Assembly (NCBI GenBank): GCA_045612715.1
Contig: JAZKZP010000011.1
Location: forward strand, 2,745-66,744
Length of the DNA stretch: 64,000 nucleotides
Direction of reading: 5' to 3'
Source: Eubacteriales bacterium
Lineage (GTDB): Bacteria > Bacillota > Clostridia > Oscillospirales > CAG-272
The translations under genes and the position numbers were made by a program. Below are positions 23,264 through 45,651 of this stretch, in pieces. The notes below the pieces were generated by a model. That model had not been told where the DNA came from. It did no database searches and saw only the letters and a list, made by a program, of their open reading frames with translations. How positions within the stretch are numbered: the first letter of the stretch is position 1; each line of letters opens with the position of its first letter.

Positions 23264-23305
23264 AAATACACACTCCATCATAATTATAAAGATATTATAG
23301 CACTC

Positions 23306-23323
23306 TATATCAAAAAAATCAAG
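23306..23323 (-). promoter_or_regulatory. Candidate operator overlapping the -35 of the araC promoter
   Basis: Minus strand reads CTTGATTTTTTTGATATAGAGTGCTATAAT, i.e. TTGATT-17-TATAAT. Confidence 0.6.
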
Positions 23324-23466
23324 ACTCTTTAGCAAATTATGCAAATTTTTTAAGGCGTAGTCATATAAATAAGTATAAAATATATATGGGTATTTATATC
23401 TATGTATAAATTGGTAATATTTTTTTGATATTAAATCAAATTCTTATAGAAAACGGAGGAAACTTT

Positions 23467-24747: not shown

Positions 24748-26111
24748 TTAATAAACTTGACAATGTTGATATCAACCTTGATGACGGGCATAAATATGCA
24801 CTTCGTGATATCAAGGCGGGTGAAAACATCATAAAATACGGCAACCCTATAGGACATGCAATAGTTGATATTGCAAAGGGAGAGCATGTACATAACCACA
24901 ACATAAAAACAAATCTTTCAGGCAATCTTGAATACACCTATGAACCTACTTTCTACGATATTGATGAAGAAGATAAAAGTCGTACTTTTATGGGATACGT
25001 CAGAGAAGATGGCAATGTGGGTATCAGAAACGATGTTTGGATTGTGGTAACTGTTGGCTGTGTAAATAAGGTAGCAGAGCAGATTGCTAAAGAAACGGGT
25101 GCGCTTCATTTCCCACACCCATTCGGTTGCTCTCAGCTTGGTGATGACCAAACTACGACTCAGCTTATTTTGCGAGGACTTGTAAATCATCCCAACGCAG
25201 GTGGTGTGCTTGTTCTTGGACTCGGTTGCGAAAACAACAATATCGATGTTTTCAAAAAGGTTCTCGGTGAAACAAACGAAAAACGAGTAAAATTCCTTAA
25301 TGCACAGGATTTTGATGACGATGTTGCAGAGGGAATTAGACTTGTAAAAGAGCTTCAGGAATATGCAAATACATTTAAACGTCAGCCCGTGCCCGTAAGT
25401 AAACTCAAAATCGGTCTTAAATGTGGCGGAAGTGATGGCTATAGTGGAATTACTGCCAATCCTCTTGTTGGACGACTTTCAGATAAGGTTATTGCAAGTG
25501 GTGGTAGCTGTGTACTTACTGAGGTTCCCGAAATGTTTGGTGCAGAGCATCTTTTGATGGCTAGAGCAGAGAACGAAGAGATATTTAATAAGTGCGTTAA
25601 GCTTATTAACGATTTCAAGGATTATTATACAAGACATAATCAAGTTATCTATGAAAATCCATCCCCCGGAAATAAAAAGGGCGGAATTAGTACACTTGAA
25701 GAAAAATCGCTTGGTTGCATTCAAAAGGGTGGTCTTTCAAAGGTTGTTGACGTACTTGATTATGGTGATGTTATTAGTAAAAACGGACTTTCGCTTCTCA
25801 ATGGTCCGGGTAATGATATCGTCGCAATTACGAATCTTACCGCAGCCGGCGTTCATATTATTCTTTTCACAACAGGACGTGGAACTCCCGTTGGTGGTCC
25901 AGTTCCCACAGTTAAGATAGCAACAAATCATTCACTTGCAGAAAGAAAATCTAATTGGATTGACTTTGATGCTTCTCCCACACTCCAGGGCAATCCCTTG
26001 ACAAACGAATTGTTTGAATATATAATTAGAGTCGCAGAAGGAGAGGAAACTAAGAATGAACAGCACTCCTATCGCGAAATTTCAATATTTAAGGACGGTG
26101 TAACACTATGA
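24741..26111 (+). CDS. uxaA: Altronate dehydratase
   Basis: SAF domain GHKYAL..IIKYG, GCSQLGDD, HPNAGGVLVLGLGCE, KCGGSDG, FTTGRGTP. Confidence 0.95.
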   Translation: MLINKLDNVDINLDDGHKYALRDIKAGENIIKYGNPIGHAIVDIAKGEHVHNHNIKTNLSGNLEYTYEPTFYDIDEEDKSRTFMGYVREDGNVGIRNDVWIVVTVGCVNKVAEQIAKETGALHFPHPFGCSQLGDDQTTTQLILRGLVNHPNAGGVLVLGLGCENNNIDVFKKVLGETNEKRVKFLNAQDFDDDVAEGIRLVKELQEYANTFKRQPVPVSKLKIGLKCGGSDGYSGITANPLVGRLSDKVIASGGSCVLTEVPEMFGAEHLLMARAENEEIFNKCVKLINDFKDYYTRHNQVIYENPSPGNKKGGISTLEEKSLGCIQKGGLSKVVDVLDYGDVISKNGLSLLNGPGNDIVAITNLTAAGVHIILFTTGRGTPVGGPVPTVKIATNHSLAERKSNWIDFDASPTLQGNPLTNELFEYIIRVAEGEETKNEQHSYREISIFKDGVTL

Positions 26112-27466
26112 GTTTTATTAACGATAACTTTATGCTTAAGACCGAAACTGCAAGAAAGCTTTATGCTGCAGTTAAAGATCTTCCCATTATTGACTACCAC
26201 TGCCATCTTTCACCTAAGATGATTGCAGAGGACTATAAATTCAGAAATGCCTTTGACCTCTTCCTTGGTGGTGACCATTATAAGTGGCGTCAGATGAGAA
26301 CAAACGGTGTTGATGAGGAATATATCACAGGCGGCGCTGATGAATATGAAAAATTCAAAGCATTTGCAAGAACAGTTCCTTATCTTATCGGCAATCCACT
26401 CTATCATTGGACACACCTCGAGCTTAAGAGATATTTCGATATCGACGAAACTCTTAACGAAGAGAGCTGTGAAAGAATTTGGAATAGAGTAAACGAATGT
26501 CTTGCAAAGGACGAATACAGTGCACAGAATCTTATTAAGCGCTCCAATGTCGCTATTATTTGTACAACTGACGATCCTCTTGATACACTTGAATATCACG
26601 AGCAGCTTGTAAACTTTGAAACAAAGATTTTGCCCACATTCCGTCCTGATAAAGCAGTTGAAATCGGCAAAGAAACCTTTGTTCCTTATATCGAGCAGAC
26701 AGGTGTAAAGTCTTACTCCGAGCTCGTTGCTTGGATGAGAGCAAGAATTCAGTTCTTCCATGACCACGGCTGCCGTCTTTCCGACCACGCACTTGAATAC
26801 GTTCCTTACGGTGAGGGCGATGCAGAAGCGGCATTCAATAAGAGAATGGCAGGAGGAACTCTTACAAACGAAGAAATTGATGCATTCAAGACAGCAATGC
26901 TTACAGTTTGTGCTGAAGAATACACAAGACTTGGTTGGGCAATGCAGCTTCATATTGGCGCACTTCGTAATAACAATAGAAGAATGTACGAAAAGCTCGG
27001 CGCAGACGTTGGTTTTGACTCCATCAATGACCTCTGCATAGCTGAAAATCTTTCTAAGTTTATGGATTCACTTGAATATAGAGATTGCCTTCCCAAGACA
27101 ATTCTTTATACACTTAATCCCAAGGATAACTACGTTTTAGGCACTATGCTCGGTAACTTCCAGAAAGCACCCGTAGCAGGAAAGATTCAGTTTGGTTCCG
27201 GCTGGTGGTTTAACGATCAAAGAGATGGTATGGAAGCACAGATGCAGGCACTTGCAAACCTCGGTATGCTCGCTCGCTTTGTAGGTATGCTTACTGATAG
27301 CCGTTCATTTGTTTCCTATCCTCGCCACGAGTATTTCAGAAGAATACTTTGTAACCTCATCGGCAAATGGGTAGAAGACGGAGAATATCCTATGGATATG
27401 GATATACTTACCGAAATCGTTTCAGGTATTTGTTATCACAACGCATTGAGATACTTCAATTTTTAA
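26108..27466 (+). CDS. uxaC: Uronate isomerase
   Basis: IIDYHCHL, DHYKWR.MR, GNPLYHWTHLEL, WWFND, GMLTDSRSF. Confidence 0.97.
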   Translation: MSFINDNFMLKTETARKLYAAVKDLPIIDYHCHLSPKMIAEDYKFRNAFDLFLGGDHYKWRQMRTNGVDEEYITGGADEYEKFKAFARTVPYLIGNPLYHWTHLELKRYFDIDETLNEESCERIWNRVNECLAKDEYSAQNLIKRSNVAIICTTDDPLDTLEYHEQLVNFETKILPTFRPDKAVEIGKETFVPYIEQTGVKSYSELVAWMRARIQFFHDHGCRLSDHALEYVPYGEGDAEAAFNKRMAGGTLTNEEIDAFKTAMLTVCAEEYTRLGWAMQLHIGALRNNNRRMYEKLGADVGFDSINDLCIAENLSKFMDSLEYRDCLPKTILYTLNPKDNYVLGTMLGNFQKAPVAGKIQFGSGWWFNDQRDGMEAQMQALANLGMLARFVGMLTDSRSFVSYPRHEYFRRILCNLIGKWVEDGEYPMDMDILTEIVSGICYHNALRYFNF

Positions 27467-27475
27467 TAAACAAAT

Positions 27476-27508
27476 AAAAAACAGGTGGTTTCAAACCACC
27501 TGTTTTTT
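27476..27508. terminator. Bidirectional intrinsic terminator
   Basis: AAAAAACAGGTGGTT..AACCACCTGTTTTTT. Confidence 0.85.
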
Positions 27509-27516
27509 ATTTGCCA

Positions 27517-28602
27517 TTAATATTTGTTAATAACTTCCTCAGTTACCGCATCAAAGAGATAAACACTCTTGTGGGGAACATAATAAGAAATTGTAGCATC
27601 CATTTTAGGAGTATCGTGTGGATCAACCTTAAGGATTACTTTTTCACCAAGCATATCAACATAAACATTAGTGTTATCACCAAGAAGCTCTGTGAGTTCA
27701 ACTTCGGCAGAAAACTTAAAGGCATTATCAACATCAGCAAGTGAAATTGCTTCAGGACGGAATCCTAGTATAATATCTTTACCTTCATAAGCATCGATAT
27801 CATTTCCAATAACCAAAGAAAGATCGTGTTTAGCACCTGCAATTTCAACGCAACGGTTGTGAACAGTAGCACGAACAAAGTTCATAGGAGGTTCACCAAT
27901 GAATCCTGCAACGAAGAGGTTAACGGGTTTGAAATAAAGCTCAAATGGAGAACCAACCTGCTGAATATAACCATCCTTCATAACAACGATTCTGTCAGCC
28001 ATAGTCATAGCTTCAGTCTGGTCGTGAGTAACGTAAATAGTGGTTGAGCCAACTTTTCTATGAATATCGGTAATTTCGGAACGCATTGTAACACGCTGTT
28101 TTGCATCAAGGTTTGAGAGTGGCTCGTCCATAAGGAATATACCAACCTTACGAATAATAGCACGTCCTACGGCAACTCTTTGACGCTGACCACCTGAAAG
28201 AGCTCTCGGTTTTCTGTCAAGATAATCTGTAAGACCGAGAATCTTAGCAGTAGCAAGAACTTTTTCTTCAATAACGTCTTCGTCTATACCTTGAAGGGAA
28301 AGACCGAACGCAAGGTTATCGTAAACAGAAAGATGAGGATAAAGAGCATAGCTCTGGAAAACCATTGCTACACCTCTTTCACGAGGACGCATTTCATTTG
28401 CGTATTTGCCGTCTATGTAAAATTCACCCTTGCTTATATCTTCAAGACCAGCAATCATACGAAGAGTAGTTGATTTTCCACACCCTGAAGGTCCAACGAA
28501 AATAATAAACTCACCTTGTTCGATTTCGAGATTGAAGTTGTGAACGGCATGAAAGCCGTTGGGATAAATTTTGTTAATGTCTTTAAGAGATAAGTATGCC
28601 AT
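27517..28602 (-). CDS. Carbohydrate ABC transporter ATP-binding protein (MalK/MsmK type), copy 2
   Basis: GPSGCGKS, LSGGQRQR, DEPLSNLD, YVTHDQ, C-terminal TOBE-like region. Confidence 0.95.
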   Translation of the reverse strand: MAYLSLKDINKIYPNGFHAVHNFNLEIEQGEFIIFVGPSGCGKSTTLRMIAGLEDISKGEFYIDGKYANEMRPRERGVAMVFQSYALYPHLSVYDNLAFGLSLQGIDEDVIEEKVLATAKILGLTDYLDRKPRALSGGQRQRVAVGRAIIRKVGIFLMDEPLSNLDAKQRVTMRSEITDIHRKVGSTTIYVTHDQTEAMTMADRIVVMKDGYIQQVGSPFELYFKPVNLFVAGFIGEPPMNFVRATVHNRCVEIAGAKHDLSLVIGNDIDAYEGKDIILGFRPEAISLADVDNAFKFSAEVELTELLGDNTNVYVDMLGEKVILKVDPHDTPKMDATISYYVPHKSVYLFDAVTEEVINKY

Positions 28603-28611
28603 AAGACTCCT

Positions 28612-29475
28612 TTACTGAATATCGCTTTGAGCTAATTCAATTTTGTTGATTTTATCTGATAAAAGGGAAACTGCATAGGGGAGATCATCTCCAACCGTAC
28701 CCTCCAAAACCAAAATTGCATTTTGATTGTGGTTGTATATTGTTTTAAGTATTCTGTCAAAATCAAGAATACCCTTGCCAACTCCACACTGTTTTAATTT
28801 ATTATCTTCGACAATAAAATCTTTGATATGGAAAAGAAGAATTTTATCACCGAAAAGTGAAATACCGCGTTCTAAAATATTATAAGCAGTATCAATGTTT
28901 GAAATATCGAGATAATTATACAAGTCAAAAATATACTTGATGTTACTCTTTCCAATTCTATCCACAGCTTCTTTAAGTCGTTCAGGGGTGTGACAAACGT
29001 GACCGAATGCGCCTTCCATAGCTATATTTACATTGTGCAACTCTGCATATTCAGCAAGGTAAGAGAATGTATCAATAACTCTGTCCAGTGCTTCATCAGA
29101 ATGATTCATTGGATGATAAATCCACGGGTCACCATTGTAAGAGCCGGTTTCACTACCAACGTAATCACATCCAATTGATTTAGCCAATGAGATGTAATCC
29201 TTAAAAACGGAAATACCATTATCAATTTTAGCAGTATTTGGATGAACGGGATTAAAATAAGCACCTATAAGAGCAATATCTTTGCCGTTTTGTTTTATTA
29301 TCTGAGAGATTTTGTTCGCTTGTTCTTGAGTAAGCTGATTAGGGGAGCAAGCAACTCCCTCAATAGACTTGTACGCAACGAATTGAACGCCATCAAGTCC
29401 CAATTCACACAAGCGATTATTTATATTTTCTGCACCCTTAACACCAAGGTCGTGTGCTCGAATCATTAGTTTCAT
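28612..29475 (-). CDS. Sugar phosphate isomerase/epimerase (xylose isomerase-like TIM barrel)
   Basis: RAHD, GAYFNP, SETG, AMEG, FD.YN, HIKD, G.G.LDF, LEG. Confidence 0.8.
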   Translation of the reverse strand: MKLMIRAHDLGVKGAENINNRLCELGLDGVQFVAYKSIEGVACSPNQLTQEQANKISQIIKQNGKDIALIGAYFNPVHPNTAKIDNGISVFKDYISLAKSIGCDYVGSETGSYNGDPWIYHPMNHSDEALDRVIDTFSYLAEYAELHNVNIAMEGAFGHVCHTPERLKEAVDRIGKSNIKYIFDLYNYLDISNIDTAYNILERGISLFGDKILLFHIKDFIVEDNKLKQCGVGKGILDFDRILKTIYNHNQNAILVLEGTVGDDLPYAVSLLSDKINKIELAQSDIQ

Positions 29476-29483
29476 ATTTTTAC

Positions 29484-30608
29484 CTAAATTCTTAAAATTT
29501 CAGTATAGCAGAGAATGAATGGGGCAACACCTTTAGCATCATTTTCGACTATAGGTTCAGAAATATAATATTCAAAGCTACCGTCACGGCGAAGATTATT
29601 TTCAGGACCAAGTCCTGCTACCAAGCAAATACCGGAAAGATTTAAATCTCCATCTTCCTTGATTTGAAGATATTTTGAGCAAATACCATCAAAGGTTTCT
29701 TTGCCGAATGTGGCAAATTCGCAGGGAAGAACACCTAAACGTGCACCCTTGAGCATAGCATAAGCAAGCATAGAAGAACCGCTAGTTTCAAGGTAATTTC
29801 CTTCGCAGTCACTCATATTGACAACTTGATAGTACATTTTGCTTTCATTATCTCGATAACGGATAATTGAGTGCATAAGCTCGGCAAAAATCTTGGAAAT
29901 TTCAGCTTTAACGTTATCATCATCACATATTTCGATAATGTCAATCATCGCAACTGTGTACCAACCAATAGCTCGTAGCCAGAAATTCTTTGAAAGACCG
30001 GTTTCTTTGTCTGCCCAGAAAATTGATTTGGAACAATCAAGGCCATGATAATAAAGACCTGTTTTTTCGTCAAACATATATTTTCTGACATTTTTAATTT
30101 GCATTAGAATATCGGTATAATCTTTATTACCCTTGTATTTTTGATATTTAGTGCTGAATACCTGTGCCATATAAAGACCGTCAAGCCATATCTGATTGGG
30201 ATAAATGAACTTGTGCCAAAAGTTATTTGTACAGGTTCTTGGTTGACTCTTGAGTTGAAGTGCTTGATGCTCAATTGCAAGACGATATTTTTCTTTTCCC
30301 GTCTTTTCATAAAGTTCAAATAACACTCTGCCTTCGTTCAAGTCATCAAGATTATATTTTTGAATATCATAACCACGAATAGTGCCATCATCAAAAACGT
30401 AATAATCTATGAATTTTTCAGCAAAATCAAAATATTTAGGATTTTCAGTAATCTTTCCAATCTCAAGAAGGGAAGTAATCATACATCCGTCAATATAATT
30501 CCAATGCGGTTTTTTGCCTTGTCGAATGCTTTCAATATTCCAAATCGGTGCATCAGAAGTTGAGCAATTAAGCAATTTGTCGATATAGGCATCAATTTTT
30601 GCGTACAT
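29484..30608 (-). CDS. GH105 unsaturated (rhamno)galacturonyl hydrolase
   Basis: WNYIDGCM, YNLD, FWHK.IYPNQIWLDGLYM, WLRAIGW, YLETSGS. Confidence 0.93.
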   Translation of the reverse strand: MYAKIDAYIDKLLNCSTSDAPIWNIESIRQGKKPHWNYIDGCMITSLLEIGKITENPKYFDFAEKFIDYYVFDDGTIRGYDIQKYNLDDLNEGRVLFELYEKTGKEKYRLAIEHQALQLKSQPRTCTNNFWHKFIYPNQIWLDGLYMAQVFSTKYQKYKGNKDYTDILMQIKNVRKYMFDEKTGLYYHGLDCSKSIFWADKETGLSKNFWLRAIGWYTVAMIDIIEICDDDNVKAEISKIFAELMHSIIRYRDNESKMYYQVVNMSDCEGNYLETSGSSMLAYAMLKGARLGVLPCEFATFGKETFDGICSKYLQIKEDGDLNLSGICLVAGLGPENNLRRDGSFEYYISEPIVENDAKGVAPFILCYTEILRI

Positions 30609-30626
30609 AAAAGCATCCTTTCAAAG

Positions 30627-32165
30627 TTATTTTACAATGTTTTTAACATTTTTGGTAATGATTTTTTCGCCTTCATTACCTTCTATAGTAATATCTTTTA
30701 CAGTTATAGTTTCAACATTATCAAGATACATACCCATTTTGCAAACCTTCTCAGCAAAATTTTTCATAATCGGAACGAAAGGTTTGGCATTATCTGAAAA
30801 TGTAAATCGAATGTTTTCAAATGTTATGGATTTTATAGGTTGTTCAGGCAAGCCGTCGCAATAACAAGCAGCTGCTTCACAATCGGTGCATTCCATATTT
30901 CTAAATGTGAAATCACCAAGATATGGGGTGCGATTATCCACAGGAAGAGCATCGCGACACCAAACATATTGAGAATATCTGTCAGGATCACAGCAATTAT
31001 ACCACATATTGATTGCAATGGGAGTAATAACGCCCTCCATTTTGATATTTTCAAAAAGCACACCATCAATTATTGCATATTTTCCACGTCCACGACGAGT
31101 TTTAATTCTCAAACCTCTATCAGTTTTGCGGAAAATACAACGATTAACAGTAAGATTAGTAACACCACCACTCATCTCACTACCAAGAGTAACCGCACCG
31201 TGTCCAAATTGCATAATACAGTTGCGAATAGTGTGACGATTAGCGGGTGTCTTATATTTTTTAGCCATATCAATCTTTGAAGATTTTATGGCAATGCAGT
31301 CATCGCCAACACTGAATTTACATCCAATGATATTAACTACATCACACGCCTCAGGGTCGATGGCATCCGTATTTGGACTATCTTTGGGGGCAAATATAGA
31401 CATATCAAGCAAATCAATGTTTTGAGAATAATAAGGATGAATTTGCCATGAAGCAGAATTTTGCGCAATAATTCCGTGAACTCTTATATCTTTACAGCGA
31501 TTAAAGAAGAGAAGACGTGGACGTCCAATAGGTGCTTTAGGATTTTGCCACCAAATAGAATTTTGTGCATTTCCATCAACCGTGCCTGGACCAATAATTG
31601 TGATATCTTCTGCATATTCAGCAAAGATGAGTGCTTGGTGCATAGTTACAGAATTACCTTCCCAAGTACCAAACTCTAATTCTTCACCATTTAACATATC
31701 AATAGTATGTCCCGGAATCACGGGGTACTTGCTTGTATCAATATGACCAAGTAAAGTAGCACCTTCTGAAAATTCAAGAACAATATGACTCTTAAGGCAA
31801 AGTGGAGCAGAAAGATAAGTTCCTTTTGGAAAATACAATTTAGCACCGAGGGGAAGACAGTTGATTGCTGTTTGTATTGCCATAGTATCTTCAGTAATAC
31901 CATCACCAACTGCACCAAAATCTTTAACATTTACAACACAAGTATCTTTTTTTGTTTTAAAAGTAATTTCAAAATTCGAAATAGAACTTGTAAGTTTGTA
32001 TTCTTTATTTGAATCAAGTCCAAATAAAGAAAATACGTTTGTATTGGAGGTCAAAACCTCATTTCCATCAAGATAGATGGTATATTCTTTTTCAGTATTA
32101 TAGGGAAGATCATTCTTCCATTCAAAACACACTGAACTAGATGAAATAAATAAAGTATTAAGCAT
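30627..32165 (-). CDS. GH28 (exo-)polygalacturonase, no obvious signal peptide
   Basis: SPNTD, GDDCIAIKS, GHG, GSEMSGG, GLRIK. Confidence 0.94.
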   Translation of the reverse strand: MLNTLFISSSSVCFEWKNDLPYNTEKEYTIYLDGNEVLTSNTNVFSLFGLDSNKEYKLTSSISNFEITFKTKKDTCVVNVKDFGAVGDGITEDTMAIQTAINCLPLGAKLYFPKGTYLSAPLCLKSHIVLEFSEGATLLGHIDTSKYPVIPGHTIDMLNGEELEFGTWEGNSVTMHQALIFAEYAEDITIIGPGTVDGNAQNSIWWQNPKAPIGRPRLLFFNRCKDIRVHGIIAQNSASWQIHPYYSQNIDLLDMSIFAPKDSPNTDAIDPEACDVVNIIGCKFSVGDDCIAIKSSKIDMAKKYKTPANRHTIRNCIMQFGHGAVTLGSEMSGGVTNLTVNRCIFRKTDRGLRIKTRRGRGKYAIIDGVLFENIKMEGVITPIAINMWYNCCDPDRYSQYVWCRDALPVDNRTPYLGDFTFRNMECTDCEAAACYCDGLPEQPIKSITFENIRFTFSDNAKPFVPIMKNFAEKVCKMGMYLDNVETITVKDITIEGNEGEKIITKNVKNIVK

Positions 32166-32166
32166 A

Positions 32167-32766
32167 TTATTGTTTATTTACCTTGTTTTTTGCATCATTA
32201 ATGATTGTTTTCATTAGATTTTTCATACTGATGAACAATATATCAATTAACATATAGAAAATACCAAAAAGAATAGGTTCAACACCAATTTTGATAACTT
32301 CATATACCCAAATAACACAGTAGAGAACAATGAATGAATAAAAGATATTAGCAATAAAAGTCCAATATTTTTTCTTCGAAAACATCATCCACTTATCGTT
32401 TTCACCCGGTAGGGTTTCTACAAAGCGAAGTGCATTATTGGTCAGCAAATCAGTTACCATACCAAGAACAACTGATAGAACTACAATCATATCAAGATAA
32501 CTCGGAATATATAAACCAAGTCCCCAAAAGATGAAATAACAAACAGCACCATTAAACCAAAATTTGATAAATAATGCCTTAACAGGTGCAGGAATTCTAT
32601 CTAAAAATCCACTTCGATATTGTTTGGCGGGGTCTTTTAATTGAGTGACTTTTGAAGTATCAATCTTATCTGCGTTGACAAGTCTGTCAACTGCTTTAGT
32701 ATTTAATTTATAGTAATCTTTTTCTTTGTTAATATTACGGGGGGAATTATGTTTGTCTTTAGCCAT
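32167..32766 (-). CDS. Uncharacterised membrane protein (~4 TM) in ABC operon
   Basis: 1-bp and 9-bp gaps to neighbours; hydrophobic segments; no recognised motif. Confidence 0.8.
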   Translation of the reverse strand: MAKDKHNSPRNINKEKDYYKLNTKAVDRLVNADKIDTSKVTQLKDPAKQYRSGFLDRIPAPVKALFIKFWFNGAVCYFIFWGLGLYIPSYLDMIVVLSVVLGMVTDLLTNNALRFVETLPGENDKWMMFSKKKYWTFIANIFYSFIVLYCVIWVYEVIKIGVEPILFGIFYMLIDILFISMKNLMKTIINDAKNKVNKQ

Positions 32767-32775
32767 TGTTGAAAT

Positions 32776-33315
32776 TTACTCCTCGTCAACAAGTTCAATG
32801 TCAGCAACAGTGGTTTCTTCAAGTTCAACACTTGTGTTAATTTTCTTAAGAAGTTTTGCAAACAAGGGTTCGAGAAGAACTGTAACTGCAGTAATTGCTA
32901 CAAGAACAATATGAATGGTTAAAACATTTTGGGCAGAATAAATGAACAATGTACTACTTGTAACTTTAACTGCGCTATTGATTATACGATTAATATAAAT
33001 AATATCTGATACGATGATTATTACAAAGAAAACCAAAATAATTGCAATCATAGAATAATTTGGCTTTTGTCTTTTTGGGAAAGCGTTCAAAAGGCAAATC
33101 ATACACAAGAGTGAAAGTAGCATTGATACGAATTCACAAAGACCCATTCCAATACCCTGAATTCTTGCAGTTGTGTTAGAAATGTCTGTGAGATTTAAAG
33201 AGAATACCAAGAAAGATACAATTAACATAGCAAAGGGAATCATACTAGGATTCTTTTTTAAGGTTACTAAGAATTTACGAACGAATTCCTTGAAAAAATT
33301 ATTTTTTTGTTTCAT
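32776..33315 (-). CDS. Uncharacterised 4-TM membrane protein in ABC operon
   Basis: AAGGAG RBS, four hydrophobic helices, acidic tail. Confidence 0.82.
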   Translation of the reverse strand: MKQKNNFFKEFVRKFLVTLKKNPSMIPFAMLIVSFLVFSLNLTDISNTTARIQGIGMGLCEFVSMLLSLLCMICLLNAFPKRQKPNYSMIAIILVFFVIIIVSDIIYINRIINSAVKVTSSTLFIYSAQNVLTIHIVLVAITAVTVLLEPLFAKLLKKINTSVELEETTVADIELVDEE

Positions 33316-33326
33316 GTTTTCGCTCC

Positions 33327-34391
33327 TTATCTTATAGCATTGGTAGTTTCTTTATCAAAAAAGTGCATATTGGTAATCGATGCAGAAACTAAATCGCCTT
33401 TTTTGAATTCACACCATTCACGGAATTTTGCAGTGATCTTGTGTCCTTTTACATTACCGTGAATAAGTGTTGTTTGACCGAGATTTTCATTAAGAGTAAC
33501 ATCAATATTTATGTAACCATTATTATCTTGAATAATATTTTCCGGACGTACCCCTAAAATTACTTCCTTGCCTACATATGAAGAAAGAGTTTTCTTTTGG
33601 TTTTCATTTAGCGGTGCAGAGAAATACTCGCTCACAAAATAACCATTATCAATCTTACCATTAAAGAAATTCATTGGTGGAAGACCAATAAAGCTTGCAA
33701 CGAAAGTATTAGCAGGATTGTCGTAAAGTTCAAGAGGAGTACCTACTTGCTGAATGTAACCCATTGACATACATACAATTCTGTCTGCAAGAGTAAGTGC
33801 TTCAGTCTGGTCATGAGTAACGTAGAGCATCGTCGTTCCAAGTCGCTTATGGAGAAGAAGAATCTCACGTCTTGTTGCACCCCTAAGCTTTGCATCAAGA
33901 TTGGAAAGTGGTTCGTCAAAAAGGAACACTTTGGGTGTACGAACAATAGCACGTCCCATAGCAACACGCTGGCGCTGACCACCGGAAAGTTGTTTTGGCT
34001 TTTTATTAAGTTGGTCGGTGAGTCCAAGAATTTCAGCAGCAGCGAGAACCTTTTCATGAATAATATTGGGATTTTCCTTACGCAAGGTAAGTGAAAATGC
34101 CATATTTTCATAAACCGTCATATGACCGTAAAGCGCATAGTTTTGGAATACCATCGCAATATCTCTATCCTTAGCAGGCAACTGGGTAACATCCTTGCCG
34201 TCAATAATAAGCGCACCCGAAGTAATATCTTCAAGCCCAGCGATCATACGAAGGGTAGTAGATTTACCACAACCCGAAGGGCCAACGAGAACTATAAATT
34301 CTCCGTCTTTAACGTCAAGATTAAAATCAAAAACTGCTTGAACGTTATTATCATATATTTTGTTAATATTCTTTAAGCTTAATGAAGCCAT
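33327..34391 (-). CDS. Carbohydrate ABC transporter ATP-binding protein (MalK/MsmK type), copy 1
   Basis: GPSGCGKS, LSGGQRQR, DEPLSNLDAKLR, YVTHDQ. ATG at 34391 after AAAGGTG. Confidence 0.95.
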   Translation of the reverse strand: MASLSLKNINKIYDNNVQAVFDFNLDVKDGEFIVLVGPSGCGKSTTLRMIAGLEDITSGALIIDGKDVTQLPAKDRDIAMVFQNYALYGHMTVYENMAFSLTLRKENPNIIHEKVLAAAEILGLTDQLNKKPKQLSGGQRQRVAMGRAIVRTPKVFLFDEPLSNLDAKLRGATRREILLLHKRLGTTMLYVTHDQTEALTLADRIVCMSMGYIQQVGTPLELYDNPANTFVASFIGLPPMNFFNGKIDNGYFVSEYFSAPLNENQKKTLSSYVGKEVILGVRPENIIQDNNGYINIDVTLNENLGQTTLIHGNVKGHKITAKFREWCEFKKGDLVSASITNMHFFDKETTNAIR

Positions 34392-34430
34392 AAAATGCAC
34401 ACCTTTCTTTTTTGGAGTGTTTGGAGATAA

Positions 34431-34910
34431 TTAATTAGAAAGAGTTTTTTCGTAATCTCTAAGAGTTTTCGTTCTATATATTCCAATAAGACCTGTTGCA
34501 AAGCAAGCAAGAGCTGAACAAAGAAGGCAAACACACACCCAAATAAACTGCTTATCATCCATAACCATAGTGGATAAGCCATCAACTGAAATCATTTGAC
34601 TGTGAGCTTTTAACGGAATATAGAATATTCTCAAAATTTGAAATGCACCCAAAGGAATAAAAGCAATGCAATAACCCATTTTATAGTTTTTTACACCTTC
34701 AGAGCAGAGAAAAGCACCAAGAAGGAAAAGAAGATTACAAACAACCGAAAATCCCATGGTGTTATTGTAGTAGTAGTTTCCTACATTTTTATGATATATA
34801 CTGACGAAATAGAGAACATTAAATATAATTGCAACGTAAGCTTGTGAAGCGGTTGAGGAATTCTTTGTATAACGTAAACGGTCTTTTTGAACATCTATAA
34901 TTTTAGCCAT
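34431..34910 (-). CDS. Uncharacterised 4-TM membrane protein in ABC operon
   Basis: GGAGG RBS lies within the end of the upstream gene; four hydrophobic segments. Confidence 0.82.
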   Translation of the reverse strand: MAKIIDVQKDRLRYTKNSSTASQAYVAIIFNVLYFVSIYHKNVGNYYYNNTMGFSVVCNLLFLLGAFLCSEGVKNYKMGYCIAFIPLGAFQILRIFYIPLKAHSQMISVDGLSTMVMDDKQFIWVCVCLLCSALACFATGLIGIYRTKTLRDYEKTLSN

Positions 34911-34914
34911 ACAT

Positions 34915-35520
34915 TTATTCCTCCAATCCTTCTTTAATAAGCTGTTCTTCTTGTTTCATCAATTTTATTTTCCAAATTAAGTTTAAAATGTTTATAGCTG
35001 CAACAATAATAAGAATAGCAGAAATAACAAAACCAAAATCAAACCAAAATGTAGAATTTTGGTCGATATAAAGAGTTTTCCATTCTTCTGCATATGCTTT
35101 AAGGGCTTCAAAGTCAACTGTGGTTAAATATTGGGTTTTAAACTTTGAAACATTAATTGCAGACCAAATAGCAACACCCACATATGCCAAAGAAGAAATA
35201 GCTATTGTAACATAATTTGCCACATAGTATTTTCTGCGTGAATGGGTATTGGATAAAAATAAAGCTAAACTGCAAATAATAAGAATTATTGATACAGTGG
35301 TAAGATTTTTATTAAATGGCTGAATATGACAAAAGATTTCAGCACCCTTTACGGAAGTAATATATTTATCATCATAAAGGTTTGGGTCGGATTTCATTGG
35401 TGGATACAAAGCATCATAAAGATCAGTAGCAAATCCGAGCGAATATATAAATAAAATAGCTGATGCTGCGAGAACTAAAAGGCAAACCAGCTTTTGAAAT
35501 TTCATTTGTTTCTTATACAT
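34915..35520 (-). CDS. Uncharacterised 4-TM membrane protein in ABC operon
   Basis: Four hydrophobic helices with two long polar loops; start uncertain (35520, 35532 or 35565). Confidence 0.8.
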   Translation of the reverse strand: MYKKQMKFQKLVCLLVLAASAILFIYSLGFATDLYDALYPPMKSDPNLYDDKYITSVKGAEIFCHIQPFNKNLTTVSIILIICSLALFLSNTHSRRKYYVANYVTIAISSLAYVGVAIWSAINVSKFKTQYLTTVDFEALKAYAEEWKTLYIDQNSTFWFDFGFVISAILIIVAAINILNLIWKIKLMKQEEQLIKEGLEE

Positions 35521-35596
35521 AATTTCATCCATTCTGTCGCGTAACGTCGCGTGACGCGACTTCACGAAATTTTAAAGTGTTAAAAAATAGTTTTGT

Positions 35597-35623
35597 GAGA
35601 GGGGGAGCGAGGCTCCCCCCCTC
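35597..35623 (-). other. GC-rich stem-loop 3' of the binding-protein gene, no U tract on the sense strand
   Basis: Minus strand reads GAGGGGGGGAGC-ctc-GCTCCCCCTCTC followed by ACAAAAC. Confidence 0.65.
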
Positions 35624-35658
35624 TTATGATTGGCAATTAAAAATTAGTGATAATTGAA

Positions 35659-37737
35659 TTATTTGTTAAGATCTGCATAGAAAGCCTGAAGTCTTACCCA
35701 AGCGTCATTTTTGATCTTAAGATACTGTTCGCCACTCCATGTTGCAGATACTGCTTCGAGCATTTCGGCACGAGAAGAAGGAACATCGCCTGTGTAACCA
35801 TTCTGAATAATGCTTACAAGGAAGTTGATACCACCCTTAGAAGAAGAGAAGTTACCATTTGAACCAAGCTTATCATATCCACCGATAATTGTATTTTCAC
35901 CTGCAGTTGTGGGAAGAACTGTGGGAACTGATGTGTACCAAGGATTTTCTGTGATAGCAAGTTCGGGATGCTTGATTGTTCCAAGTGCAATAGCATTAGA
36001 AATCTTAGCAGCGCCTTCCTTACCAACAACGTGTGTGCACTGATATTCAAAGGACTGGCTCTTTACGAAAGAAAGTGTAGAACCAAGATAGAAACGTGCA
36101 TAGTTTGTATAGTTACCAGATGCAAGAGTCCAAAGTTCTTTAGATGTAGCATCTGCGATAACGGGCCACTGCTGACCATTGAAGTTGAACATTACCATGT
36201 TGCCGTTTTCATCATGCTTGATGAATTCCTTAGGACCATAGGACATAAGGATCTGACCTTCTCTACTGTAAGCATAGTCGATAAGTGCAAGTGCCTTTTC
36301 AAGCTTCTTAGCATCATCAGCGATACCTGCCTTAGAAAGAGCCCAACCGTCTGTCTTAACAGATCTCCAAGATTCTGTAAATCTCATATATTTTTCGCCA
36401 GTTCCGTCATTCCAACAAGCAACGGGAACCATAACTGCCATATACTTTTCACCATCCTGAAGGTCGGTTTCATTATAAGCAGTCTGTGTCTGGTTGTAGT
36501 CGTAGTGCATAAAGCCAGCATCTGTCTTAAGCATTGTAGAAGTATTGTTCTTCTGTTCTGCTATGAATGAGGAAGAAATAAGACCTTCCTGAGCCATTGC
36601 GTTCATTCTTTCAAGTGCTACGTAAGTAGCTTCTTCCTGACGAGCGTCATGGAGCATACCGTCATTACCTACATAGAGATAATCCTGACGGGATTCAAGA
36701 CCACGAACTCCGAAGAGTGTTCCTGCGAAACGGAACATATCAACACGTCTTTGGTTGTTGTCATCTTCACGAGAGAAAAGACCTTCGATTGAATCGCCAC
36801 CGTTAAGTGTCTGAGGGTTAGCAACTACGCAACGGAGAAGAGCAACAAGCTCGTCTGCGTCCCAAGCAGCATCCTGACCGATGAAGAGGTCAGCTCTGTT
36901 TGTGCCGTAGTAACCGTTGTAAGCTTCGTCAATGTATTTACGAAGCATATTAACTGCTGCAACACCGTCAAGTGTGCCTGCAGCGTTCATATTAGCAATA
37001 ATATTACCAGCCTTGTCATAATCCTTTGTAAGTGTGATTACAGCATTGCCATCTTTGTTAACAGCATCAACTTCAACCTTGCCACTTGTAGGCATATAAG
37101 GAGTATAAACTGCTGCTTTAAGCTGATTAGAAGCTTCAGCTGTGAATTCGCCTTCACCGTTAAGGAGTTTTTCTACCCAGTCTGTTCTCATAAGGGGCAT
37201 ACGTTCGATATCGTTTACACCGTCGAAATAGGGTGAGAAGTAGATTGCGCCGTTTGTTGTGTCACCTGTAATAGAGAGACGAACAATGGGGTTAGATTCT
37301 AGATAAGCCTTGAAGTTAGGCATCTGATCAAGATAATCAGCGAGGTTGATGAGCTTACCAGCAACGCCGTTTTCGTTAAGAATAGCAGCGGAACCAGAAA
37401 CCATATCTACTTCGTTAAGCTTTTCTTGCCATACCTTAAATTCCTTTTCTGCGGAACCTGCACCTGTGAACTTATCTTCGAATGTTACACCGAGAATTTC
37501 TTGAAGTGCTGCCCAAGTGGGTTTAAGGTCGCCTGTAAAGTAGGTCTTGCCATCTGCAAGTGTAAGACCTTCTTCTTTAATACCGGAGTCTGCGGTAAAT
37601 GTAATTCCGGTCTTTGTGTTGTTGTATCCGGTTGCCATTCTAAGAACAACTTCGTCTTCAACAACAGGTTGGTCAGGACATGCTACAAGAGAGAGCATCA
37701 TCACAAGCACCAATGCGAATGCTAAGAGTTTTTTCAT
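35659..37737 (-). CDS. Large ABC substrate-binding lipoprotein (probable oligogalacturonide binding), 692 aa
   Basis: MKK start and lipobox SLVAC; NLADYLDQMPNF, MRTDW..KLL, ALALIDYAYSREGQILMSYGP. ATG at 37737 after GGAGG. Confidence 0.9.
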   Translation of the reverse strand: MKKLLAFALVLVMMLSLVACPDQPVVEDEVVLRMATGYNNTKTGITFTADSGIKEEGLTLADGKTYFTGDLKPTWAALQEILGVTFEDKFTGAGSAEKEFKVWQEKLNEVDMVSGSAAILNENGVAGKLINLADYLDQMPNFKAYLESNPIVRLSITGDTTNGAIYFSPYFDGVNDIERMPLMRTDWVEKLLNGEGEFTAEASNQLKAAVYTPYMPTSGKVEVDAVNKDGNAVITLTKDYDKAGNIIANMNAAGTLDGVAAVNMLRKYIDEAYNGYYGTNRADLFIGQDAAWDADELVALLRCVVANPQTLNGGDSIEGLFSREDDNNQRRVDMFRFAGTLFGVRGLESRQDYLYVGNDGMLHDARQEEATYVALERMNAMAQEGLISSSFIAEQKNNTSTMLKTDAGFMHYDYNQTQTAYNETDLQDGEKYMAVMVPVACWNDGTGEKYMRFTESWRSVKTDGWALSKAGIADDAKKLEKALALIDYAYSREGQILMSYGPKEFIKHDENGNMVMFNFNGQQWPVIADATSKELWTLASGNYTNYARFYLGSTLSFVKSQSFEYQCTHVVGKEGAAKISNAIALGTIKHPELAITENPWYTSVPTVLPTTAGENTIIGGYDKLGSNGNFSSSKGGINFLVSIIQNGYTGDVPSSRAEMLEAVSATWSGEQYLKIKNDAWVRLQAFYADLNK

Positions 37738-37814
37738 GGTTTTTTCCTCCATAATATAAATATTTATTATCACGAGCATTCTTGCTCAATAATAACCTAA
37801 AAATTGAAAAAGAA

Positions 37815-38705
37815 TTATTCTTTAACGCCACCCATATTTACGCCTTTTGCAAAGTATTTTTGAATAAAGGGGTAAATAACAAGAATCGGAATAACAGAGC
37901 AAACTATAAGAGCAAATATTACAGAGTCAGAAGCATAACTTTCATTCCAAAGTGACATAATTTCAGGGTCTTGATAATCCTCAAGATATTTTCTGATAAA
38001 TACCTGAAGGGGTTGTTCGTTAGTGTTGGTAATCATCTGACGCGCCCAGAAGTAACCATTCCAACGAGATATACCAAACAGAAGAGCAACAGTTGCTATT
38101 GTAGATTTACTCATTGGAATATATACATTAGTAAGTACTTGGAATTCAGTAGCGCCGTCAACTATCGCAGCCTCTTCAATTTCAGCAGGCACACCCTCAA
38201 AAGCATTTCTTAAAAGGATAATGTTCATAGCTGCCATACCCATCGCAATAACTACAAGCCATTTATCATCTACAATTCCGATTGAAACAAAAACGTCTTT
38301 AGTATTAAGGTAGTTGATATACTGAGGAACGATACCGGCAGAGAACCACATAGTGAATACAAGGAAGAAGTTGATACCTTTTCTGAAAAGTAATCTCTTC
38401 TTTGAAAGGGCATAACCACCTAAAATAGCAACGCCCATTGCCCAAAGTGTACCGTAAAAGGTGATGAAAAGGGTATTGGTGTATGCATTCCAGAAGTTGT
38501 TATCATTAAACATTTTAGCAAATGCTTCAAACTGTATATCTTTTGGAAAAAGAACAATGTGACCATATTCTACAGCTTCACGACCACTAATTGAAGCGGA
38601 TATAGCATATACGAAAGGATATAAGCAACAAAGAGCAAATACTGTTAGAAATGAATAACTCAATATTTTAAATAAAAGTTCAGTAAATTCAAGTTTTCTT
38701 TTCAT
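37815..38705 (-). CDS. Carbohydrate ABC permease (MalG/YtcP-like)
   Basis: EAA loop IEEAAIVDGA, FSAGIVP.Y, YPFIQKYFAKGV..GGVKE. Confidence 0.94.
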   Translation of the reverse strand: MKRKLEFTELLFKILSYSFLTVFALCCLYPFVYAISASISGREAVEYGHIVLFPKDIQFEAFAKMFNDNNFWNAYTNTLFITFYGTLWAMGVAILGGYALSKKRLLFRKGINFFLVFTMWFSAGIVPQYINYLNTKDVFVSIGIVDDKWLVVIAMGMAAMNIILLRNAFEGVPAEIEEAAIVDGATEFQVLTNVYIPMSKSTIATVALLFGISRWNGYFWARQMITNTNEQPLQVFIRKYLEDYQDPEIMSLWNESYASDSVIFALIVCSVIPILVIYPFIQKYFAKGVNMGGVKE

Positions 38706-38719
38706 TTTTAGCTACCTCC

Positions 38720-39769
38720 TTAATAAAGTGATACGTCGGATGCCTTGCGGGCAATGGAGTTAGCTCCGATAACGAGAAGCATGCCAACCACGTTGTTAAT
38801 CATTTCAGCTGCAGAAGCAAGTCCAATCTGACCCGAAGAGCCAAGACCTAATTCTTTTGCAAATGTTGAAACAACGTCCGCTGTTACATAAGTATTCTTA
38901 TTATAAAGAAGAAGCACCTTTTCATAACCAACGTTAAGAAGAGAACCAATTCTTGTTATAAGCATAATTACAACTGTTGAAAGAATACTAGGAAGAACTA
39001 CGTAACGCATTTGCGCCCATTTGTTAGCTCCGTCGATTTGCGCAGCCTCATAGCTTGTTGGAGAAATTGCAATAATTGCAGCAAAGAACACTATGCTATC
39101 ATAACCTGCAGTTTCCCAAATTCCACTTATCTGATAAATAGCACGGAAATATTCCGGTCTATTTAAAAGACCTAAATCACCGATTTCAGGAGTAATTGCT
39201 CCAACTGAAACAAGGAATCTTGAAATTACACCCATTTCGATACCTGCAATGGGAGATGCTGCTCTAACAAGCATTGTTATAAGAGAAGTCATAACAACAG
39301 TTGACATAAACTTAGGCAAATATGTAAGCACCTGATATATGCTACGTGCAAGATTAGATTTGATTTCATTGAAGAAGAGTGCAATTATGATGGGCATTGG
39401 AAAACCGAAGCATAATCCGTAAAAGCTTAACAAAAATGTATTTCTAAAAGCTCTCCAGAAATCAGGATAATCTACAAAAAGCTTTCTAAAGTAAGAAAAG
39501 CCGGAGTAGAACTGATCTGCCACTTCTCTAACAGCATCATAAATCTTGAATGAGCCTAAAAGCTCATACATTGGCATATATCTCCAAAAGAAGAAGACAA
39601 GTATCATAGGAAGAAGCATAAGATAGAGACGCCAATCTTTGAGAATTGTTAAGCCGACGTGCTTCCAATGATGCTTTTCTACATCATCGCGAACAATCTG
39701 TTCGGGATCCTCTCTGTACTTTTTAGTTTTTTCATCATAAATAAGATAATCAGCAGCTTTTGATTTCAT
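38720..39769 (-). CDS. Carbohydrate ABC permease (LplB/YteP-like)
   Basis: RNTFLLS, ALFFNEI, YLPKFMS, YEAAQIDGANKW. Confidence 0.94.
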   Translation of the reverse strand: MKSKAADYLIYDEKTKKYREDPEQIVRDDVEKHHWKHVGLTILKDWRLYLMLLPMILVFFFWRYMPMYELLGSFKIYDAVREVADQFYSGFSYFRKLFVDYPDFWRAFRNTFLLSFYGLCFGFPMPIIIALFFNEIKSNLARSIYQVLTYLPKFMSTVVMTSLITMLVRAASPIAGIEMGVISRFLVSVGAITPEIGDLGLLNRPEYFRAIYQISGIWETAGYDSIVFFAAIIAISPTSYEAAQIDGANKWAQMRYVVLPSILSTVVIMLITRIGSLLNVGYEKVLLLYNKNTYVTADVVSTFAKELGLGSSGQIGLASAAEMINNVVGMLLVIGANSIARKASDVSLY

Positions 39770-39836
39770 AAGAATCTCCATTCAGTTAATTATAATAATG
39801 TGGGATGCTATAAAAAGGATAATTCAAATTAGCATT

Positions 39837-40406
39837 TTACTCTTCTAATCTTTCTTTTTCTAAACGCATAAGATAAGATTTTTGGTCTTCGATTAGTCCG
39901 TCAATGTTTTTTGCAATAACCATTACGAGAATTGCAAATAAAAGTGAAAGAACATCGGTACCTAAAAAAGCAAGGAGCGTGTTGAATTTAAATTCAAAAA
40001 TAAGTGAAAAACACCATCTTCCTAATACAATTGATAAGTAGGCAGAAGAAACGAAAATTAATTTAATAACGAAATCATTTCGTATTTTATCTTTGGTAAA
40101 TTTTTTCACAAGTGGCAAAATCAAGACTACAAATAAGCTTCCGCCACAATAAATCATATATTGAGCTAAAGAACCTCGAATTACAGTGCAGTAAACGAAA
40201 GCACCTATAAAAGAGGGAAGTATTGCAAATAGATTCCATCTCATAAATGTAATGCAGACAATCGCTAAAGTTATAGAAACCGTCATAGCTTGAAGACTGA
40301 ACCATGTGCTGGATGCCATTGTGGCAACAGCTTCAAAGACGGCAGTTAGAACACATAAAATTGCAAGATCTATTTGACGATATTGTTTGAATGTAATTTG
40401 TTTCAT
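39837..40406 (-). CDS. Uncharacterised ~6-TM membrane protein heading the ABC operon
   Basis: 189 aa, mostly hydrophobic, charged C-tail; no clear RBS. Confidence 0.75.
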   Translation of the reverse strand: MKQITFKQYRQIDLAILCVLTAVFEAVATMASSTWFSLQAMTVSITLAIVCITFMRWNLFAILPSFIGAFVYCTVIRGSLAQYMIYCGGSLFVVLILPLVKKFTKDKIRNDFVIKLIFVSSAYLSIVLGRWCFSLIFEFKFNTLLAFLGTDVLSLLFAILVMVIAKNIDGLIEDQKSYLMRLEKERLEE

Positions 40407-40510
40407 TTAAAAGATACCATTGGCAGTGAATTAAATAGCAAGAAATAAGAATTTTTATGAACAATAACCCACTATTCAAAGTAATTTTATTACAAACAAC
40501 TATAACTGTC

Positions 40511-40558
40511 CTTGATTTTTTTGATAGGAAATTCAACTTGCCTTGATTTTTTTGACAT
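40511..40558 (+). promoter_or_regulatory. Tandem candidate operators CTTGATTTTTTTGATA / CTTGATTTTTTTGACA, 31 bp apart
   Basis: Direct repeats starting at 40511 and 40542, upstream of the ABC operon. Confidence 0.6.
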
Positions 40559-44914: not shown

Positions 44915-45095
44915 ACAGTTCATTTAGTCGGGTGTGCTGCATGACGGCAACATTCGGGGATAAGGAAATTGCGGTGAGAATCCGCAGCAACAGCCATTAC
45001 CGTATCTTATCATTTGATAACAAGTCGGAATGCTTATCGTTCTGTGACACGTAAAAGGACTTTCGGGCAAATAGGAAAGACGGTGTAAATGAAGC
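44915..45095 (+). ncRNA. Cobalamin (B12) riboswitch
   Basis: Core AAGGAAA-TTGCGGTGAGAATCCGCAG-CAACAGCCATTACCGTA...AAGTCGGAA; GATAAG/CTTATC and TTCATTTA/TAAATGAA closing stems; followed by a terminator and B12-uptake-type genes. Confidence 0.8.
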
Positions 45096-45118
45096 ACAGA
45101 GCAGGGTGCTTCTGTTTC

Positions 45119-45152
45119 GCGCGCTTTTCTATGGAGAGGGCGCTTTTATTTT
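45119..45152 (+). terminator. Riboswitch expression-platform terminator
   Basis: GCGCTTTTCT-atg-GAGAGGGCGC then TTTTATTTT, upstream of the RBS. Confidence 0.7.
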
Positions 45153-45184
45153 ATCCTTTTGAAAAAGAAAGGAAAAACAAAAAA

Positions 45185-45649: not shown

Positions 45650-45651
45650 TT

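Follow-up and report, generated by a model that had tools for sequence, protein, structure and literature searches.

The stretch of DNA considered here, referred to below as the window, comprises 64,000 nucleotides (nt) of a contig (JAZKZP010000011.1, positions 2,745 to 66,744 of the forward strand) from a Eubacteriales bacterium of the CAG-272 lineage (order Oscillospirales; assembly GCA_045612715.1). Between positions 27517 and 40406, the listing of open reading frames (ORFs) and their translations identified 13 co-oriented minus-strand genes, whose number, order and sizes agree with those given in a preliminary description of this DNA. They specify two permeases (P and p), a putative solute-binding lipoprotein (S), two ATPases (A and a), three enzymes and five small membrane proteins (g1, g5, g6, g8 and g9, collectively the orphans), in the order g1-P-p-S-g5-g6-A-g8-g9-GH28-GH105-isomerase-a (Table 1). 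The intergenic gaps measure, in gene order, 55, 14, 35, 93, 4, 30, 11, 9, 1, 18, 8 and 9 nt; ten of the twelve are no longer than 39 nt, as expected from the 1-39 bp spacing reported earlier for most of them. A single strong terminator, counted here in support of a common unit, follows the last gene. The 13 genes are likely to form one operon inside a pectin/galacturonate locus, and an operon for uptake and cleavage of pectin oligosaccharides is the best explanation for the unit. Comparison of the locus with its relatives suggests that the five orphans are probably dedicated partners of this clade of ATP-binding cassette (ABC) importers.

Pfam and NCBIfam searches agreed in identifying the two permeases, the two ATPases, GH28, GH105 and the isomerase under the names that they had been given from the letters alone. 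Both permeases exceed the cut-off of the BPD_transp_1 model (PF00528; 36.1 bits for P and 46.9 bits for p, cut-off 26.4) and both translations contain a loop of the EAA..DGA...LP type; p has, in addition, MalG/UgpE-like NCBIfam matches that fall below the cut-off. Mean column identity over 54 loci is 79% for P and 86% for p, and P proteins from loci of very different G+C content are 72-90% identical to the protein in the window. The nearest paralogue of P in the same genome shares only 26% identity with it, in an alignment that starts only at residue ~42-57. The part of P that precedes this point, a cytoplasmic N-terminal extension of ~45 amino acids (aa), is highly conserved, lacks a counterpart in the paralogues and carries residues that are invariant over 54 loci (E27, V30, R31, D32, V34, E35, K36 and W39).

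The ATPase A matches the UgpC subfamily with 459.9 bits (cut-off 432) and, from the ortholog alignment, probably starts at Met4. Two other ATPases of the genome share 57% identity with it, and a shares 51-54%. Because A and a both have canonical Walker A, Walker B, signature and H-loop motifs, and because their Q-loop region and helical subdomain are of the ordinary MsmX/MalK type when compared with paralogues, both should dock on EAA loops. The proposal that S is a solute-binding protein (SBP) held up in part: S is a lipoprotein (signal with LVAC lipobox, probable start Met15) with weak matches to solved SBPs, and its 706 residues match none of the SBP models of Pfam. A phmmer search of the structures found 5gx8, 5gub and 5xs8 (“Extracellular solute-binding protein family 1”) at E 3e-6. 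With a profile built from 37 orthologues, AlgQ1 and AlgQ2 (1y3n, 1j1n) came up at E 9e-9 and the 5gx8 group at E 1e-4, the matches being confined to profile positions 85-202, that is, ~100-120 residues of the N-terminal lobe.

P, p, A/a and S, the last as putative SBP, probably constitute a complete but very divergent type I importer of the carbohydrate uptake transporter 1 (CUT1)-like kind. CUT1 importers need only an SBP, two permeases and one or more ATPases, as exemplified by MalEFGK2, by LplABC and YtcQ/YtcP/YteP of Bacillus subtilis and by TogMNAB of Dickeya, which handles oligogalacturonides. The system in the window resembles them in its two EAA permeases with six transmembrane (TM) helices each, its MalK/UgpC-type ATPases with C-terminal OB/TOBE domains, its putative lipoprotein receptor and its setting among pectin enzymes. 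It differs from them in having two different dedicated ATPases, an unusually large putative receptor, a first permease with an N-terminal extension and so remote from its nearest paralogue, and, above all, five conserved membrane-protein genes interleaved with those of the core, so that its composition departs from the four-part one. The nearest solved relatives of S, for the N-lobe only, are AlgQ1/AlgQ2 of the Sphingomonas sp. A1 alginate importer (1y3n, 3vlu, 1j1n) along with the 5gx8/5gub/5xs8 proteins; unlike AlgQ, S is a lipoprotein and is ~200 residues longer. The substrate of AlgQ is a polyuronate, and since AlgQ is the nearest solved relative of S, acidic, uronate-containing oligosaccharides would, by analogy, fit as the substrate of this importer. 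The systems of these relatives are not known to have accessory membrane proteins.

None of the orphans yielded a Pfam or NCBIfam match at E≤0.1 beyond noise, and 44 diverse homologues of g1 likewise produced no Pfam match (0/44). This bears out the idea that the orphans are not matched by known, unrelated families. Each of them has an intact frame in every one of 16 loci from the same genus, with identities of 41-81% as against 67-93% for the core proteins. Nei-Gojobori dN/dS ratios, which are rough as dS is saturated, amount to 0.14-0.23 for the orphans versus 0.04-0.08 for permeases, ATPases and enzymes. Each orphan retains invariant polar residues and a positive-inside topology. The five orphans are thus, judging from these comparisons, real genes under purifying selection.

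Topologies were derived from family-averaged hydropathy and charge (positive-inside rule). The g1 protein fits a topology of six TM helices with both ends in the cytoplasm (N-in/C-in) and a conserved, charged cytoplasmic C-terminal helix (DG.IEDQK.YL.R); residues Y9, E25, R56, W57, G89, G170, E173, Q175 and R181 are invariant over 54 sequences. The g5, g6 and g8 proteins are N-in/C-in with four TM helices each. The first of these, for which ortholog alignment places the probable start at Met16 (hence ~201 aa, the length originally assigned), has two extracellular loops of ~35-40 aa and a cytoplasmic SRRKYY loop. In g6, a conserved cytoplasmic N-terminus (DR.RYTKN) accompanies an SEGVK.Y loop, and in g8 a conserved extracellular loop (S.NLT.IS.TT) and a cytoplasmic loop (FPKR.KPN) precede an acidic C-terminal tail. 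The earlier observation that three of the orphans share a four-helix layout with a short basic loop between TM2 and TM3 is confirmed for g5, g6 and g8, in which THSRRKYY, GVKNYK and FPKRQKPNY, respectively, lie between the second and the third hydrophobic segments. Finally, the four TM helices of g9 follow a basic cytoplasmic N-terminal region of ~60 aa, and a conserved 25-aa cytoplasmic loop with a short helix links TM2 to TM3. In three of the four 4-TM proteins, the cytoplasmic loops are only 6-9 residues long. It had also been proposed that the orphans might be distant paralogues. This was not supported: BLASTP among the five found nothing significant, and hhalign probabilities did not exceed 3% with genus profiles of 14-17 sequences or 5.4% with profiles of 61-80 sequences. 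Among homologues of g6, a 303-aa protein from a metagenome-assembled genome (MAG) labelled “Clostridia bacterium” (P0273) carries a soluble insert of ~150 aa in the extracellular loop between TM3 and TM4.

Predicted structures were obtained for g1 and g9. The AlphaFold2 (AF2) model of g1 is of high quality (mean local confidence, pLDDT, 90.2; predicted template-modelling score 0.86). A Foldseek search of the Protein Data Bank (PDB) with this model returned S components of energy-coupling factor (ECF) transporters in eight of the first nine places counting ThiT (six entries), the S component 5edl and chain S of 4rfs; RibU (3p5n) also ranked ninth and 4m5b, a truncated transition-metal transporter, seventh. 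The best match, ThiT 4tkr_B, has a template-modelling score of 0.61, probability 1.0 and E 0.056, the E values of the others extending to ~1. In the protein atlas, the nearest clusters include one automatically named ECF S component (0.98) and one named Thia_YuaJ (0.87). At the sequence level, two genes of the genome match PF12822 but g1 is not among them, hhalign of g1 against 20 PF12822 proteins gave probabilities below 1%, and the g1 profile run against PDB sequences returned noise only (EMC4 at E 0.02). Homologues of g1 form 525 representative clusters at E≤0.001, the longer ones among them having only acidic low-complexity tails or being chimeric. Going by the predicted model, g1 appears to resemble ECF S components in fold only: its ~190 aa, its probable six TM helices and its predicted fold are reminiscent of ThiT (4tkr, 3rlb, 4muu), 5edl, 4rfs chain S and RibU (3p5n, 5kc4), but it differs from them in lacking sequence or profile similarity, in being encoded with a type I importer instead of EcfT/EcfAA' and in its charged C-terminal helix. 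Since membership at the sequence level was tested and not found, we do not class g1 as an ECF S component. The AF2 model of g9 (pLDDT 80.4) is a plain four-helix bundle (helices 60-85, 90-116, 122-126, 134-158 and 164-198). No structural match to g9 better than E 1.2 was found by Foldseek in the PDB, its protein-atlas neighbours are unnamed clusters only, and a tblastn search of plasmids with g9 was negative. The g9 family counts 2626 homologue clusters, the best 120 of which contain no Pfam domain except in one protein described below.

Gene-order conservation was assessed at increasing phylogenetic distance. Within the genus, g9 was found in 17 of 22 other genomes (and in 0 of 18 genomes outside it); tblastn with the 13 proteins in 16 same-genus regions recovered an identical gene set and order as far as each contig extends. 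A g9 profile used on 300 other genomes of the order gave five positives, in three other families, all with the five orphans in their usual places where contigs are long enough. In the same kind of 300-genome sample, a g1 profile strongly matched four of the five g9-positive genomes and no others. Two larger collections were then compared, one from genomes (one genome per species; 139 relatives of g9, best 80 loci analysed) and one from metagenomes (418 relatives of a permease-containing query protein, best 80 loci analysed). The order g1-P-p-S-g5-g6-A-g8-g9 is kept in both sets wherever contigs reach. The full nine-gene run is present in 63 of the 80 g9-anchored genome loci, each adjacency being observed in 63-80 of 64-81 testable cases and the few misses corresponding to split or duplicate tblastn hits. 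Among the 80 permease-anchored metagenome loci there are 29 full runs, with adjacencies seen in 28-74 of 28-74 cases and, for A to g8, in 31 of 34. Throughout the loci examined, this permease clade was not seen without the orphans, nor the orphans without it. The prediction of conserved co-occurrence with the ABC clade is therefore borne out in every locus, as far as contigs reach.

The best 80 genome loci all come from MAGs, mostly of ruminant, rabbit or mouse gut origin; the matches as a whole extend to human gut samples. Submitter labels of these loci include Lachnospiraceae, Oscillospiraceae, Ruminococcus, Acutalibacteraceae and Christensenellaceae, as well as Faecalibacterium, Agathobacter and Acetatifactor; the G+C content of module loci ranges from 37 to 61%. 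Two module contigs bear the submitter labels Corallococcus sp. (L101) and Flexilinea sp. (L115). The G+C content of L101 is 46%, that of Corallococcus being far higher, and mis-binning is likely. A more divergent version of the system, on short contigs of one genome of the order (L037 = G206:C91, and G206:C31), has a g9 of 33% and a GH28 of 47% identity, an SBP-like gene (39% identity) placed after GH28, and g1 on another contig.

The enzyme genes follow a different pattern. In 67 loci the contig continues for 5 kb or more downstream of g9; 53 of these have GH28, 54 GH105, 38 the isomerase and 61 the second ATPase near the module, and in 12 of the 67 the second ATPase directly follows g9. Because the enzymes come and go, the conserved unit is a ten-gene module (g1, P, p, S, g5, g6, A, g8 and g9, with a nearby) and not the 13-gene operon. 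The same result weakens the suggestion that the orphans serve as a scaffold for the cytoplasmic GH28 and GH105: the enzymes are dispensable, and the orphans are kept where these are not adjacent.

Gene overlaps and fusions provided further hints on how the orphans may be associated. The g5 and g6 genes overlap in 38 of 73 loci (median gap -1) and occur as single-chain proteins in P0274 (353 aa, 13 member sequences) and P0272 (342 aa). These two lineages are well separated (39% identity across the full fused length), which argues against a sequencing error. From these sequences, g5 and g6 probably act as one unit of eight TM helices. In a second case (P0271, 583 aa; one cluster with 36 member sequences from one contig), a full-length P is followed by g9. 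The join fits the topology, both joined ends being cytoplasmic. We treat this fusion as a lead that, if real, would possibly tie g9 to the permease. Other candidate fusions did not survive inspection. A g9-GH28 fusion in L110 was ruled out by a stop codon, and an A-g8 fusion in L165 by Ns and a frame change in the contig; P0271-like extensions past the permease end in L125-L127 and L182 reflect tblastn reading through stop codons. No g5-g6, g8-g9, g1-P or g9-GH28 fusion was present among the retrieved loci examined at the DNA level.

Taken as partners of the importer, the orphans might also assemble physically with it. We put at about even the chances that an enlarged importer for uronate oligosaccharides includes them as accessory membrane subunits. 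In such an assembly, the conserved extracellular loops of g5, g6 and g8 would be exposed beside the docking face of the unusually large S, and the C-terminal helix of g1, together with the N-terminal region and the TM2-TM3 loop of g9, would lie near the P extension and the ATPases. Imported oligomers would be cut by GH28 and GH105, which are predicted to be cytoplasmic (inspection of the N-termini revealed no signal peptide in either enzyme or in the isomerase), and the cleavage products would enter the adjacent UxaCBA and KduID pathways. Small membrane subunits lying outside the main transport pathway have precedents in two 4-TM subunits of binding-protein-dependent secondary transporters, DctQ of tripartite ATP-independent periplasmic (TRAP) transporters and TctB of tripartite tricarboxylate transporters (TTT), and in the extra subunits of CbiMNQO/NikMNQO. 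The orphans differ from DctQ and TctB in that Pfam reveals no sequence relation, no DctM/TctA-like partner accompanies them and transport is powered by ATP through a type I importer. Another point of comparison is offered by the DUF624 proteins (YesL/YesV-type), small membrane proteins encoded in sugar-ABC and rhamnogalacturonan clusters of Bacillus. Like these, the orphans are small, polytopic and encoded in carbohydrate ABC transporter operons; unlike them, they comprise five distinct proteins with a constant gene order and do not match PF04854, which has no match elsewhere in the 74%-complete genome either.

A number of observations weigh against the orphans being subunits. Conserved gene order is evidence of functional linkage, not of a complex. 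We know of no type I importer that needs lateral membrane partners, and P and p each possess their own EAA loop. Rates of evolution are 2-4 times higher for the orphans than for the core. The g1 protein resembles S components while the genome encodes EcfT elsewhere, and known S components work with EcfT/EcfAA'. The fusion of P to g9 is a single protein cluster from one contig and recurs in none of the 80 metagenome loci retrieved with P0271. Lastly, in one g9 homologue (P0107, 273 aa) a helix-turn-helix (HTH) domain of the XRE type replaces the usual N-terminal region; as read from its sequence, this protein hints that the g9 scaffold can couple to DNA binding.

The presence of two distinct ATPases raises the question of a second machine. 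The orphans could form a separate membrane device co-inherited with the importer, for example an ECF-like or novel path for importing a monomeric pectin product, in which g1 would bind the substrate, g5-g6, g8 and g9 would provide the scaffold and A the motor, leaving a to P, p and the SBP. This would agree with the position of A among the orphans (5-6-A-8-9), with A and a not being each other's closest paralogues (54% mutual identity as against 57% to two others), with the S-component-like predicted fold of g1 and with the short cytoplasmic-loop helices in the g1 and g9 models, which are possible coupling elements. However, the Q-loop and helical subdomain of A are those of an ordinary MalK/MsmX-type protein, like paralogues that serve EAA-loop permeases, and no EAA-like loop is found in the translations or family alignments of the orphans, three of whose four 4-TM members have, as said, minimal cytoplasmic loops. 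The P-g9 fusion, if real, would also link g9 to the permease. On balance we consider a separate device unlikely. Another reading appears very doubtful: g1 would be a group II ECF S component of the ordinary kind, serving some micronutrient or pectin product through a housekeeping EcfAA'T and being a mere passenger in the operon, with the 4-TM proteins unrelated to it. The genome does have an EcfT (PF02361, on another contig) and two canonical S components, and both the Foldseek ranking and the atlas clusters agree with such an identity; against it, g1 has no sequence or profile similarity to S-component families (PF12822, PF09515), occurs only with the module in the sampled genomes, always as its first gene, and ends in the conserved charged helix, for which we know of no equivalent in solved S components.

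The HTH domain of P0107 and the conserved cytoplasmic tails of g1, g8 and g9, along with the MalK-type regulatory C-terminal domains of both ATPases, could be taken to mean that the orphans are regulatory or sensory partners that sense the substrate or the state of the transporter and regulate transcription or the ATPases, without belonging to the translocation path. This seems decidedly unlikely to us: the HTH fusion is one sequence on one 1146-nt contig, five different membrane proteins are many for a regulator, the locus already has an AraC-type regulator, and Pfam and NCBIfam detect no DNA-binding or kinase domain in the orphans of the window. The notion that the orphans are spurious ORFs or decaying remnants, to which their lack of family matches and their faster evolution relative to neighbours might lend some credit, can practically be dismissed in view of the intact frames and invariant polar residues in more than 100 loci of 37-61% G+C, dN/dS ratios well below 1, the size of the g9 and g1 families and the confident AF2 models.

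If the accessory-subunit reading is correct, the orphans define a new importer architecture, which may account for the uptake of large acidic oligosaccharides by Gram-positive bacteria of the gut. In its strongest form, the type I core, the S-component-like g1 and 16 further TM helices would make up a permanent holo-complex of ~34 TM helices and a new class of ABC importers. We regard this form as somewhat unlikely; if true, it would join features of two importer classes treated as separate and would be specialised for long polyanionic pectic oligosaccharides. Should the orphans turn out to be regulators or a second transporter, they would still represent five new protein families with a definite genetic context. 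In either case the module is widespread in pectin-fermenting gut Clostridia, sharply defined and directly testable. No description of the five proteins or of the module was found in the literature searched, which consisted of listings and the beginnings of abstracts. The passages on ABC transporters in a 2026 review of pectin use describe only the canonical ABC architecture of two transmembrane domains and two nucleotide-binding domains.

Three further lines of analysis had limited bearing on these alternatives. Sequences related to the module are present in four RNA libraries of one bovine-gut study, as contigs from relatives (90-95% identity) that bridge g9-g8-A (32433-34154), g6-g5-SBP (34600-36829), SBP-p-P (37289-39484) and p-P towards g1. 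Joint expression of orphans and core is thereby weakly suggested; DNA carry-over is possible and a single transcript is not implied. Uncovered parts and the high depth over the ATPase genes carry no information in these libraries. Some RNA contigs show joints that skip or revert ~5.7-6.0 kb between the ATPase genes (27900-28450 and 33900-34260); these probably are assembler joins across conserved paralogous ATPase sequence from many organisms. Prediction of a complex of P, p and g1 from 54-row alignments gave 0.00 for g1 as partner in both runs and was counted neither way. Rate covariation, from distance matrices and from branch lengths on a fixed tree (52 loci, 101 branches), placed A, a, g1 and g9 in one block of proteins and P, p, SBP, g5, g6 and g8 in another. 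In a control with 37 loci and 71 branches, GH28 and GH105 joined the ATPase block equally strongly (0.35-0.52). A reading of the blocks as contacts was consequently rejected; they reflect compartment or composition.

Table 1. Features of the 13-gene unit and of its surroundings in the window (ORF sizes in amino acids)
Feature	Position	Strand	ORF size	Remarks
g1	39837..40406	-	189	Polytopic membrane protein, first gene of module; no Pfam/NCBIfam match
P, permease	38720..39781	-	353	EAA loop; BPD_transp_1
p, permease (MalG/UgpE-like)	37815..38705	-	296	EAA loop; BPD_transp_1
S, putative divergent solute-binding lipoprotein	35659..37779	-	706	Weak matches to solved SBPs
g5, 4-TM protein	34915..35565	-	216 (GTG)	~201 aa from probable start at 35520; no family
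g6, 4-TM protein	34431..34910	-	159	No family
A, MalK/UgpC-type ATPase	33327..34400	-	357	ABC_tran + OB_MalK; between g6 and g8
g8, 4-TM protein	32776..33315	-	179	No family
g9, 4-TM protein with basic N-terminal region	32167..32766	-	199	No family
GH28, probable exo-polygalacturonase	30627..32165	-	512	Glyco_hydro_28, E 2e-34; variable accessory
GH105/GH88-type unsaturated uronyl hydrolase	29484..30608	-	374	PF07470, E 1.6e-85; variable
Xylose-isomerase-like TIM-barrel protein (sugar isomerase/epimerase)	28612..29475	-	287	PF01261, E 4.6e-30; variable
a, second MalK-type ATPase	27517..28602	-	361	ABC_tran + OB_MalK + TOBE_2
Intrinsic-terminator-like hairpin	27471..27513	-		20-bp stem + T run; ends 13-gene unit
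Promoter-like site upstream of g1	40484..40512	-		Weak, 9/12 matches; consensus match only
KduI	15541-16425			
KduD-like SDR	16441-17244			
PL9-like beta-helix protein	17331-21269	-	1312	
AEC-family membrane transporter	21450-22430	-		
AraC regulator	22445-23344	-		
UxaB-like	23425-24747			
UxaA	24741-26111			
UxaC	26108-27466			

The surroundings of the 13-gene unit constitute a full pectin/galacturonate regulon, with the Kdu, PL9-like, AEC, AraC and Uxa genes on one side and genes for GH5 and GH3 on the other. Two adjoining plus-strand ORFs with no Pfam match (45089-46179; 186 and 175 aa) are situated downstream of the GH3 gene.

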